NCBI RefSeq assembly: GCF_006345805.1
Contig: NW_021825942.1
Span: 1 to 13,958, forward strand
Length of the DNA stretch: 13,958 bases
DNA from: Octopus sinensis
Lineage: Eukaryota
Direction: 5' to 3'
Made by a program: the position numbers and the translations under genes
Part shown: positions 1,961 to 13,958 of the stretch, in pieces
Layout: each line of letters starts with the position of its first letter
Position numbering within the stretch: position 1 is the stretch's first letter
Notes under the pieces: generated by a model
The model's input: only the letters and a program-made list of their open reading frames with translations
What the model was told of the DNA's origin: nothing
The model's database searches: none

Positions 1961-2029
1961 GGATTAAACACATAAATGTGAAACAAGGTGGAAAAAAGAG
2001 TACTCAAATACCAGTGGTAGAGTAATATG

Positions 2030-2168
2030 CTTTATTTAAAGCAGCAGAAAATTCAACAAAACCTGATACTCTGAGTTTCCGTTGCCGTTCATAAAAACTG
2101 TCCGATGAACGGCAACGGGAAACTCAGAGTAACAGGTTTTGTTGAATTTTCTGCTGCTTTAAATAAAG
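2030..2168. repeat. Near-perfect inverted repeat (63/64-bp arms, 12-nt spacer), probable inverted PLE terminal repeat remnant
   Basis: 2030-2092 is the reverse complement of 2105-2168 apart from one substitution and a 1-nt indel. The unit (~1959-2168) is bounded by (TA)n on both sides. Confidence 0.9.
2093..2140 (+). ncRNA. Minimal type I hammerhead ribozyme motif (U4C core variant)
   Basis: AAAAACUGU-CCGAUGA-ACG GCAA CGG-GAAAC UCAGA GUA/ACAGGUUUU. Stem I has 8 of 9 pairs, stem II is short and GNRA-capped, stem III is near-palindromic (ACUCAGAGU). Predicted cut after 2131. Confidence 0.65.
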
Positions 2169-2282
2169 TATATATATATATATAAAGGGAAGCTTTATGA
2201 AAATAGACAAAAGACGAAGGCAGGTGGAAAACAAACAAACAATTGTATTAGTATGGCGCTCAGGAAATATAAATAAAACAAG

Positions 2283-2320
2283 TCTTTAACGTTTCGAGCC
2301 TACGCTCTTCAACAGAAAGA
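2283..2320 (-). ncRNA. Minimal type I hammerhead ribozyme motif in the PLE 3' region (A6U core variant)
   Basis: UCUUU-CUGUUGA-A-GAGC GUAG GCUC-GAAAC GUU/AAAGA. 5-bp stem I, 4-bp stem II, loopless palindromic stem III AACGUU. Confidence 0.7.
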
Positions 2321-2484
2321 TACACAGAGAGAAAAAAAACACAGAAAGAAGGAGAGAAAAAAAATGCGTGCAGTAACTAACGAATCAACATGGCGATCTG
2401 ATTTCGGCCAGAAGTCAAAGATCAAACATGAGACGCGAGAGCGAAATTAGGGGAGATAATAGGGTTGAATGACCAGCTCCAACA

Positions 2485-2750
2485 TAAGGGTGTGTGTGTG
2501 TGTGTATGAGAGAGTATTAGTGCGTCTGAGAGGTCTGGACGTGTGTATGTATAGGGTTGGTGTATGTATTAGTATGTATTAGTATGTATTACTATGTATT
2601 AGTACGTATTAGTATGTATAAGGGTGTGTGTGTGTATGAGAGAGTATTAGTGCGTATGAGAGGTCTGGACGTGTGTATGTATAGGGTTGGTGTATGTATT
2701 AGTATGTATTAGTATGTATTAGTATGTATTAGTTGGTGTATGTATTAGTA
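2485..2750. repeat. ~134-bp tandem duplication containing (TATTAGTATG)n, inside the PLE 3' region
   Basis: Units start at TAAGGGTGTG (2485 and 2619) and share GAGAGTATTAGTGCGT...GAGAGGTCTGGACGTGTG. Confidence 0.9.
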
Positions 2751-3082
2751 TGGCACATCATATATGATGTGATGTGTAAAGTCGTGTGGTGTAGTGTGGA
2801 GAGAGGAGAAGAGGGGGAGAGGGAGGAGAGGGGGGAAAGGGGGAGAGAGAGGAGGGGAGAAGGAATGGGGAGGATGGGGAGGAGGAAAGAGGAGAGGGGG
2901 GGAGAGAGAAGAGGAGTGAGGGAGCAGAGGGAAGGGGAAGAAGAGGGAAGGAGGGAGGGAGAAAGAGGGAAGAAGGGAAGGGGAGTAGGGGTGTGTGAAA
3001 GGATGAAGGACTGAAGAAGTAGGGTCGGGGGGGAAAGGTAGGTGAGGAGGGGGAGAGGGGGTTAGATGAGGAGGGGGGAGAG

Positions 3083-3360
3083 TTTGAGACCAAATGGCGT
3101 GTAAGAGCGAAGAGAGAAGATTAATTCCTGTTCACGGCGCAAACGGGAATCCGGATGGCCTCTGTGTAAGGACAAACCGAACACAGATAGGTGTTGCAAG
3201 GAGTGGACCGGTGGAGCGGAAATGGCGAGAGACGGTGTGTCGTTCGCAAGGTGGATTCACGAAGGTGTTCCGCGAACCGGTCAGCCAAGCGGCGTCCCGT
3301 TTGTCCGATGTACAAGGAATGGCAGAGAGAGCAAGAGGCGCAATAGATAATATTGCTGGA
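3083..3360 (-). pseudogene. PLE GIY-YIG endonuclease domain, frameshifted
   Basis: SSNIIYCASCSLCHSLYIGQTGRRLADRFAEHLR /fs/ VSRHFRSTG /fs/ HSLQHLSVFGLSLHRGHPDSRLRREQELIFSLRSYTPFGL. Contains IY..CxxC..YIGQT..R..EH and the terminal RE..I..L....P.GL(N) motif typical of PLE endonucleases. Confidence 0.9.
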
Positions 3361-3376
3361 GTGCGTGTACATACAC

Positions 3377-3469
<93 letters not shown>

Positions 3470-3575
3470 CATGTGTACATATATATCGGTGAGTGGACAA
3501 ATGAAAAGAAAGAGGCACTCAACACATTTGGACATTGGTAAAACTTAAAAAGTCAATAATTTAAAACAGTTTGAA

Positions 3576-3649: not shown

Positions 3650-4264
3650 CGGAACCGGCGTTACTTCCATTTTAACCCTAGGAGGACACCTCTTCCAGCT
3701 GGTTATCTCGTCACTGGAAAATGGTAGAGGTTCGCGCCCCTGCTTGTAATATATATCTGGTGCAGATAGGCGGCGAGCTGGCAGAATCGTTAGCAAGTCG
3801 GGCGAAATGCTTAGCGGTATTTCGTCTGCCGCTACGTTCTGAGTTCAAATTCCGCCGAGGTCGACTTTGCCTTTCATTCTTTCGGTGTCGATTAAATAAG
3901 TACCAGTTACGCACTATGGTCGATATAATCGACTCAATCCGTGTGTCTGTCCTTGTTTGTCCTCTCTGTGTTTAGCCCCTTGTGGGTAATAAAGAAATAG
4001 GTATTTCGTCTGTCTTTATGTACTGAGTTCAAATTCCGCCATGGTCGACTTTGCCTTTCATCCTTTCGGGGTCGATAAATAAAGTACCAGTTTAGCACTG
4101 GGAACGATGTAATCGACTTAATCCCTTTGTCTGTCCTTGTTTGTCCCCTCTATGTTTAGCCCCTTGTGGGCAGTAAAGAAATATATATATCTGGTGCAGA
4201 TTGCATCGATAACCAGCTGGGAGAGGCTCTTCCAGTGGTTAAAACGGTATTAACGTTGGTTCCG
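3650..4264. repeat. Imperfect ~58-bp inverted repeat pair (3650-3707 / 4208-4264) enclosing a SINE insertion
   Basis: CGGAACCggCGTTA...CCAGCTGGTTATC versus the reverse complement of GATAACCAGCTGG...TAACGttGGTTCCG; about 46/58 identical by manual alignment. Confidence 0.75.
3768..4182 (+). mobile_element. SINE family B, dimeric (full unit plus 5'-truncated unit), with 19-bp TSD
   Basis: Head GGCGGCGAGCTGGCAGAATCGTTAGC, B-box-like GAGTTCAAATTCC; second unit starts at 4000. TSD ATATATATCTGGTGCAGAT at 3749-3767 and 4183-4201. Confidence 0.9.
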
Positions 4265-7017: not shown

Positions 7018-7390
7018 GGAAGCGCAATGGCCCAGTGGTTAGGGCAGCGGACTCGCGGTAGGAGGATCGCGGTTTCGATTCCCAGACCAGGCGTTGTATG
7101 TGTTCATTGAGCGAAAACACCTAAAGCTCCACGAGGCTCCGGCAGGGGTTGGTGGCGACCCCTGTTATACTCTTTCGCTCCAACTTTCTCTCACTCTTTC
7201 TTCCTGTTTCTTGTCCCCGACTTCCTACGCAACCGCTGAGCCTGGATGCGCATTCATCCATCCGTCGATGCTCTCTGTTGGGGATTGACCTGCTTTCTCT
7301 TCTGCGGGTCTTACAAATAGCAAAGGACCACGTTTCGGACTTCTCTCACTGGGACGAAGACCGCTTCGCTCAACAATCAAACAAACAAAC
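7018..7390 (+). mobile_element. tRNA-derived SINE family C, tail type 1
   Basis: A box TGGCCCAGTGG, B box GTTTCGATTCC, (CAAA)n end. 7021-7203 is homologous to 11170-10988. Confidence 0.85.
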
Positions 7391-7844: not shown

Positions 7845-7996
7845 ATTTACATTATTTACATTTGACGGATATTTGTCCTCATCCTGTTTTTTGTTAACAC
7901 AACGTTTCGGCTGATATACCCTCCAGCCTTCATCAGGTGTCTTGGGGAAATTTCGAACCTGGGTTCTTATTCCTAAGGTATTTTTCGATGTTATTG

Positions 7997-10179: not shown

Positions 10180-10230
<51 letters not shown>

Positions 10231-10383
10231 AAATAAGAAAATGGAGAAATATATCTAAATCAATCATCAACTATCAGATAATACCCAATCAATACTTTAT
10301 TAAACCACTACACAATAGCAATGGTATTATACATTAATATAGTACAAATATAACAAGACATAGAAATAGAAATAGAAATGCAT

Positions 10384-10515
10384 TTACATTGTAGCTGACA
10401 GCTGTTTCGGCCGTGAAGACAGGTATGTCTCATTTAACCTGTTAGCCATATAAAGCAGGTATAAATGAGACATTAACAAGAATATCTCACGGCCTCTTCA
10501 GAGATTTTAATGCAA
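10384..10515 (-). ncRNA. Type I hammerhead ribozyme with extended stem II, within a (TA)n-flanked unit (~10229-10585)
   Basis: UUGCAUU AAAAU CU-CUGAAGA-GGCCGUGA[70 nt]UCACGGCC-GAAAC AGCU GUC/AG CUAC AAUGUAA. Inner helix 10425-10441/10456-10473; AATAAA downstream (10296-10301, minus). Confidence 0.85.
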
Positions 10516-10652
10516 GTATGCGTACAAATCCTAAAAAATTTACATGTAAATATAAATATGTGTGCATACACACTCATATTCTTACATATATATATATACA
10601 CAATAATACAATATAAACAGTATAAACAATGTATATATATATGTGGGATGAT

Positions 10653-10867: not shown

Positions 10868-11170
10868 CGTGATCACCGTGACCGACCAGGCTATCAGATG
10901 TTGCTACACATCGCTGGTCACAATGTACTTCGCATTGTTTTAGCCTTCAAATGACGCCAGCCCACTGGCTAAGTGAGCAGGCCAAAAGAAGAAAGAGTGG
11001 GAGAAAATTGTGGCGAAAGAATACAGCAGGGATCGCCACTAACCACTGCTGGAGCCTCGTGGAGCTTTAGGTGTTTTCGCTCAATAAACACTCACAACGC
11101 CCCGTCTGGGAAACGAAACCGCGATCCTACGACCGCGAGTCCACTGCCCTAATCACTGGGCCATTGCGCA
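10864..11170 (-). mobile_element. tRNA-derived SINE family C, tail type 2
   Basis: Head GCGCAATGGCCCAGTGATTAGGGCAG; ends in (TCACGGTGA)2 next to (TA)n. Confidence 0.85.
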
Positions 11171-13659: not shown

Positions 13660-13958
13660 ATAGTCTTTTCTACCCTAGGCACAAGGCCGGAAATTTTGGG
13701 GGAGTTGACCAGTCGATCAGATCTACTCCAGTATGCAACTGGTACTTAATTTATCGACCCCAAAAGGACAAAGACAAAGTCGACCTCGGCGGGATTTAAA
13801 CTCAGAACATAACGGCAGACGAAATACCTATTTCTTTATTGCCCACAAGGGGCTAGACACAGAGAGGACAAACAAAGACAGACAAACGGCTTAAGTCGAG
13901 TATATCGACCCCAGTGCGTAACTGGTACTTAATTTATCGACCCCGAAAGGATGAAAGG
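13660..13958 (-). mobile_element. SINE family B, multimeric, runs off the window end
   Basis: Same unit junction AAAGAAATA|GGTATTTCGTCTG at 13829/13828 as at 3999/4000. Confidence 0.9.

Follow-up and report, generated by a model that had tools for sequence, protein, structure and literature searches.

The window analysed here is a stretch of 13,958 nucleotides of Octopus sinensis DNA (contig NW_021825942.1) and consists of microsatellite-rich animal-type DNA. Its repeats are reminiscent of octopus SINEs; the SINE-like repeats at 3870-4191, 7022-7203, 10988-11169 and 13758-13958 are dispersed, lie in opposite orientations and are 87-88% alike. Motif inspection combined with folding identified a complete type I hammerhead on the minus strand at 10515-10384, near the end of a further repeat that abuts a (TA)n run. 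The features of this locus are as follows.

10516-10641, minus strand: AT-rich upstream segment, likely 5'-truncated, in which 10586-10597 and 10632-10641 are short runs of (TA)n (contigs reach 10575; 10574-10650 was skipped as repeat)
10509-10515, minus strand: distal 5' strand of helix I, pairing with 10390-10384 (pair probabilities 0.42-0.98 in the 132-nt fold)
10502-10503, minus strand: proximal 5' strand of helix I, 2 bp with 10396-10395 (fold)
10501-10495, minus strand: catalytic core C3-A9, CUGAAGA (motif and fold)
10494-10409, minus strand: domain II, an 86-nt rod composed of an 8-bp base, 4 bp, an internal loop, 12 bp, 5 bp and a variable tip (-35.7 kcal/mol)
10408-10405, minus strand: catalytic core GAAA, G12-A15.1 (motif and fold)
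10405-10398, minus strand: palindromic helix III, ACAGCUGU (2 bp and a tetraloop in the monomer, an 8-bp duplex in the dimer)
10397/10396, minus strand: predicted cleavage site after GUC, with C17 at 10397 (predicted from sequence)
10384-10396, minus strand: 3' strand of helix I including the internal loop (fold)
10231-10383, minus strand: closing 3' stretch of the repeat, covered most deeply over its final ~60 nt (depth)
10181-10228, no strand assigned: (TA)n run at the 3' end of the repeat, the likely insertion target (sequence)

Architecture of the long-armed hammerhead

The CUGANGA core, the GAAA, the A15.1-U16.1 pair and the NUH site of type I hammerheads are all present. Helices I, II and III surround the core and the structure is open at helix I, with only 2 bp each in the proximal helix I and in helix III of the monomer. 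The base of helix II is formed by eight Watson-Crick pairs (10494-10487 with 10409-10416), with pair probabilities of 0.98-1.0 for seven of them and 0.51 for the eighth, and is followed by a bulge, 4 more pairs, an asymmetric internal loop, a 12-bp inner stem (10473-10462 with 10425-10436, pair probability 0.8-1.0), a 1-nt bulge and 5 bp. Helix I comprises 2 bp beside the core, a 5x4 internal loop and 7 bp, one of which is G-U. The observation of a long-armed hammerhead is thus confirmed. An earlier note, made from the letters of the sequence, had described a perfect core with a GUC site and a palindromic stem III, an 86-nt stem II domain with an 8-bp base and a 12+5-bp inner hairpin, and a stem I of 2+7 bp with an internal loop; all of these were recovered, domain II at exactly 86 nt and stem II with 4 further pairs, and the description is accurate except that the strand, which is the minus strand, was omitted.

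Two shorter hammerhead motifs also occur on the minus strand of the window. An ordinary short hammerhead of the Penelope-like element (PLE) type at 7895-7945 carries CUGAUGA with an extra A, a stem II of 5-6 bp, GAAAC-GUU and a 5-bp stem I. A short hammerhead-like motif at 2285-2325, with an A6U core (CUGUUGA), adjoins a near-perfect inverted repeat of ~147 nt (2027-2173) and lies 3' of a frameshifted GIY-YIG-like remnant at 3130-3350 (minus strand), recognised by eye; a Pfam search of the endonuclease-like frames at 3124-3552 returned no family. The assemblage at 2027-3350 is likely another PLE insertion.

A relaxed descriptor, allowing a domain II of at most 150 nt and requiring at least 8 bp in stem II and at least 2 bp in stem I, matched one place in the real window and none in 1500 dinucleotide shuffles of it (both strands). 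The 141-nt stretch that was folded has a z-score of -4.28, none of 200 shuffles being as stable, and the rod formed fully in all three sequence contexts folded. Distal helix I, with pair probabilities of 0.42-0.98 in the 132-nt fold, fell to 0.0 in both longer contexts. The self-duplex of the palindrome of helix III has 8 bp and -11.1 kcal/mol. Relative to the monomer ensemble the hammerhead fold is higher by 7.2 kcal/mol, or by 13-15 kcal/mol in the longer contexts, and relative to the tandem ensemble by 10.2 kcal/mol, because a competing AGCU-GUC-AGCU hairpin encloses the cut site. The hammerhead junction gains stability from tertiary contacts and Mg2+ that nearest-neighbour models leave out of account; therefore, the energy gap is a caution rather than a refutation. 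A search for pseudoknots and for loop-loop or loop-flank Watson-Crick pairing gave nothing above chance in 8 comparisons (best 39 of 500 shuffles), contacts of the rod with helix I and with the flanks included.

The min-HHR descriptor accepts a stem II of 3-7 bp and a loop II of 3-10 nt, i.e. 24 nt at maximum, with no helix III loop (PMC4209133 supplement), and the spacer in a core-only search was set to 7-17 nt (PMC8557442). The present motif, with a domain II of 86 nt and a helix III loop of 4 nt, falls outside the former, and the suggestion of the earlier note that descriptor searches with short loop limits would miss it is borne out by these published limits of 24 nt and 17 nt against 86 nt. 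The Rfam hammerhead covariance models, against which the earlier note had proposed a comparison, gave no match to 10515-10384; since they equally missed the ordinary short hammerhead at 7936, the Rfam result is uninformative on the long arm and cannot be attributed to it.

The repeat family and its carrier

For the family survey, contigs of four of 24 sequencing runs were placed on 10240-10650, the 20 runs with small word shares being left out. In the four runs, which bear three organism labels (A, B, C and A, respectively), 614, 427, 266 and 78 contigs match the region. Summed over domain II, the depth amounts to 0.75, 1.15, 1.19 and 1.10 of that in the two core bins, and it exceeds the depth of the downstream flank 2.5-4.6-fold and that of the upstream flank 3.1-15.2-fold. 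No joint skipping the arm is listed in any of the four runs, so no common short-armed form appeared, contigs being prone to drop rare variants. Overlapping pieces tile the ribozyme, none spanning all of it among the 32 of 1385 pieces and 24 of 127 loose ends listed, and run X1, of which 76% was read, has a 4-5-fold dip in depth at 10422-10449. Division of the depth in run X2 by that of two long contigs (51-75) gives ~1,500-2,300 copies, an order of magnitude only; depth does not equal copy number, and a family size of roughly a thousand or more copies is a rough estimate. The long arm is, thus, a family trait of a multi-copy repeat, and the depth across domain II rules out a one-off insertion that lengthened only this copy. 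The atypical hammerhead subtype proposed in the earlier note is accordingly carried by a repeat family in four runs, while its placement at a PLE terminus is well motivated but one that we infer, no RT/EN gene being linked. At positions 10380 and 10521 all the placed contigs of the four runs differ from the window, these letters being either peculiar to this copy or perhaps errors in the sequence.

Five of the 13 variant places listed for the four runs fall inside the 132-nt ribozyme. A10430G retains a pair of the 12-bp stem as U-G, the variants at 10480 and 10507 occupy unpaired positions and that at 10454 disrupts a weak tip pair, while the core variant U4C at 10500 accounts for 4.5, 24, 22 and 43% of the depth in the four runs; for U4C, a reduced in vitro activity is reported that nevertheless permits viroid infectivity (PMC3088659). 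Among the 24 of 127 loose ends listed, some carry a different tip loop and a sister form replaces the helix I G-U by A-U. At the loose ends at 10398 and 10506, which we infer to be one subfamily, the flanks diverge just outside the ribozyme, and the NUH site (GUA) and helix I, with this A-U, are kept. No two-sided compensatory change in domain II was seen among the variants listed for the four runs; the covariation is thin, and it is retention rather than covariation that suggests structural selection on the arm. Further upstream, a U-rich AG/G acceptor-like site is found at 10538-10530 (minus strand), 29 nt upstream of the core, as in the Drosophila Penelope pseudo-LTR intron; a loose-end variant behind 10520 is without this site.

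As in PLEs, the hammerhead sits close to the 3' terminus of a repeat present in many copies, and it is quite likely that this repeat end is PLE-related. The predicted cut lies 166 nt from the (TA)n end. The depth at 10254-10309 is 1.9-5.6 times that of domain II in the four runs, a 3' bias that fits, as expected, 5'-truncated retro-insertions or sister families sharing an end; in 5'-truncated PLEs only the 3' hammerhead remains (PMC4209133). All three minus frames of this copy contain stops, leaving no ORF, and no RT or GIY-YIG gene is linked to it. The Hydra clade is our best guess for the carrier, held at slightly less than even odds by analogy with published elements. In the available tables, PLEs of this clade insert into (TA)n in 26 of 27 families, the distance of their hammerhead from the 3' end is ~90-430 nt except in two rows, 26 of 26 rows have a real helix III with AC as its first letters, and four of the 26 (Hydra-1_aMil, Penelope-1_NV, Penelope-1_SK and Penelope-2_SK) read ACAG-nn-CUGU; the protein markers of the clade are the RWK and DKT motifs and a CxCX5C linker, with no CCHH (PMC8557442). 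Insertion at (TA)n was found here at one locus only, and Naiads share the (TA)n preference.

Several candidate carriers and homologues were set aside. None of eight family motifs occurs in the published consensus files of Naiad, Chlamys and Hydra; Naiad_Obim, Naiad_Ovul and Naiad_Omin gave 0 motif matches and differ at their 3' ends by eye, and the ribozyme of Hydra-1_Obim is a different one. For Octopus vulgaris, 31 Penelope-like families with recent activity have been annotated in a study of its repeats, the main text of which makes no mention of ribozymes. In public collections, the family-specific pattern had 0 matches, and 10 metagenome, 4 GTDB and 5 viral pattern matches include none that is homologous or that closes a long helix II. 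Six of the 10 metagenome matches (L001, L002, L003, L005, L006 and L007), from one assembly with animal-like genes, form a separate repeat family in which a short-stem hammerhead core is followed ~70-80 nt later by a second GAAAC-AGCUGU-H, and the stem I strand ahead of the first core is complementary to the strand that follows the second (6 bp in L007). This family might hold a built-in double hammerhead with the same palindrome as its helix III; an Rfam search of these repeats gave no match.

On comparison with known hammerheads, the present one resembles the dimer-type hammerheads of PLEs in its predicted mode of action. Those of the Hydra clade (Craig et al. 2021, PMC8557442) are likewise of type I, near the 3' end and associated with a (TA)n target, with an ACAG/CUGU helix III in some, whereas their domain II reaches at most ~24 nt across 26 rows against 86 nt here; further, helix III is here a perfect palindrome without the 2-nt loop of ACAG-nn-CUGU, and the proximal helix I has 2 bp in this copy. 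The Drosophila virilis-type and the minimal hammerheads of PLEs (Cervera and De la Pena 2014, PMC4209133) share the CUGANGA/GAAA core, G10.1-C11.1, the palindromic helix III, the 2-bp helix I and a helix II base of 7-8 bp, but PLE min-hammerheads typically have an extra base after A9, which 10515-10384 lacks, and the longest domain II among 56 metazoan PLE-type representatives is, by our own count, 23 nt. An oversized domain II is described for PLE-X1_sMoe of Selaginella, a PLE hammerhead with 9 bp and a 35-nt loop that is flagged as deviating (File S2, PMC8557442); its domain is of 53 nt rather than 86, and the element is an endonuclease-less, rDNA-targeting plant PLE with no likeness of sequence by eye. 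The discontinuous Clec2 hammerhead is also natural and has a large peripheral insertion, but is of type III, with the insertion (150-1500 nt) in helix I and the host 3' UTR as its location (PMC6155905). Metazoan non-LTR retrozymes resemble it in being of type I with a weak palindromic helix III and dimer cleavage, and differ in forming tandem arrays with mostly short, loop-contacting helices, as against a solo copy with 3'-biased depth (PMC7229834, bioRxiv 10.64898/2026.07.22.740005). The present motif is most likely a PLE-end ribozyme, and its helix II is the longest among the hammerheads of that class compared here, with a 53-nt precedent in PLE-X1_sMoe. In a search of the literature, as distinct from Repbase and Dfam, neither this family nor a helix II of 86 nt was found described; examples with a long helix II may be contained in Lunse et al. 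2017 and Arkhipova et al. 2017.

Proposed activity and alternative explanations

The locus is best read, with a probability of roughly 0.55, as a type I hammerhead with an 86-nt rod that probably belongs to a (TA)n-targeting PLE as its 3' pseudo-LTR ribozyme and is predicted to cut slowly as a dimer. The chemistry of the hammerhead itself is established. The rod would fold first and fix the G10.1-C11.1 pair, while two repeats in a partial-tandem transcript would swap strands, their palindromes forming an 8-bp helix III on which helix II would stack as usual; the double hammerhead would then be cut slowly after C10397. As the rod formed in all contexts and made no base-paired contact above chance, it is read as a tolerated, stabilising extension, which would be dispensable for chemistry and would make no classical loop I-loop II contact. 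Metazoan PLE hammerheads with a weak palindromic helix III are reported to cut slowly and mainly as dimers (PMC4209133, PMC7229834, bioRxiv 10.64898/2026.07.22.740005), and a 2-bp helix I with a palindromic helix III is published for Penelope of Drosophila virilis (PMC4209133). On this model the family is probably active as a dimer. Activity of the window's own copy, which the earlier note thought possible, is somewhat less likely than not: the copy is probably a solo insertion with a truncated 5' end, whose cleavage may be poor or absent, and the 2-bp proximal helix I, the hairpin over the cut site and the U4C variant in 4-43% of the depth call for caution. In the sole PLE reconstituted in vitro, as reported in PMC11167929, hammerhead cleavage occurred but was dispensable for insertion.

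That the rod has, besides stabilising helix II, a selected job of its own, for instance in binding the RT/EN protein of the element or in bringing two copies together as a dimer, appears unlikely. It would account for the core-level depth of domain II where both flanks drop 2.5-15-fold, and for a tip that varies above a 12-bp stem whose one listed change keeps its pair; but AT-rich sequence may depress the depth of the flanks, five variant sites in 132 nt do not suffice to demonstrate selection, no pairing between the loops or between loop and flank exceeds the shuffles (best 39 of 500), and the one PLE examined in vitro did not require hammerhead cleavage to insert (PMC11167929). The depth profile bears also on the idea that the repeat derives from a PLE end as a non-autonomous, retrozyme-like element, this copy being a solo monomer of ~400 bp. 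Here the depth peaks at the 3' end rather than being even, the window holds no tandem neighbour and no go-back joint is listed, though a unit junction could fall in the skipped 10574-10650; this explanation is therefore considered improbable, even with the absence of an ORF from the copy, the type I hammerheads of metazoan retrozymes in units of 150-450 bp (PMC7229834, bioRxiv 10.64898/2026.07.22.740005) and the proposed descent of retrozymes from PLE pseudo-LTRs in its favour.

Equally improbable is a dead or decaying ribozyme whose helix II was lengthened by a fold-back duplication in a master copy that spreads regardless of cleavage. The core, the NUH site and the pairing of helix I persist where the flanks diverge, which argues against decay, and the competition of the hairpin over the cut site comes from nearest-neighbour models, which, as noted above, neglect the junction's tertiary and Mg2+ stabilisation. 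The common U4C variant and the many Naiad PLEs that spread without canonical hammerheads (PMC8557442) speak for it, as does an internal direct repeat of 11/14 (10489-10476 against 10432-10419); this repeat, however, does not exceed what chance gives (667 and 906 of 5000 shuffles), so that an origin of helix II by internal duplication was rejected and is kept as a lead. Finally, 10490-10439 (52 nt, GU...AG) might be a spliceosomal intron whose removal would leave a helix II of 34 nt, given GUGAGA at 10490, ACAG/G at 10442 and the introns that PLE pseudo-LTRs can contain and that alter the hammerhead (PMC4209133). Such an intron would be very short and devoid of a pyrimidine tract, with both sites buried in stable stems, and no corresponding joint is listed in the four runs, though contigs drop rare forms; it is regarded as highly improbable.

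The chemistry and the general context being already known, the gain is moderate and the novelty lies in the long-armed family form. Descriptors that limit domain II to ~24 nt, set beside a family with an 86-nt domain, reveal a blind spot in genome surveys of hammerheads, and this matters for claims that certain Penelope-like clades are devoid of them (PMC8557442). A bolder possibility, which we regard as unlikely, is that the 86-nt helix II is a selected functional module, docking a protein or serving as a dimer scaffold, of a whole amplified PLE family and that descriptor-invisible hammerheads explain some of the PLE families listed without a hammerhead or with only a 'half core'. The family itself offers a natural test of whether the length of helix II matters in dimer-cleaving PLE hammerheads.
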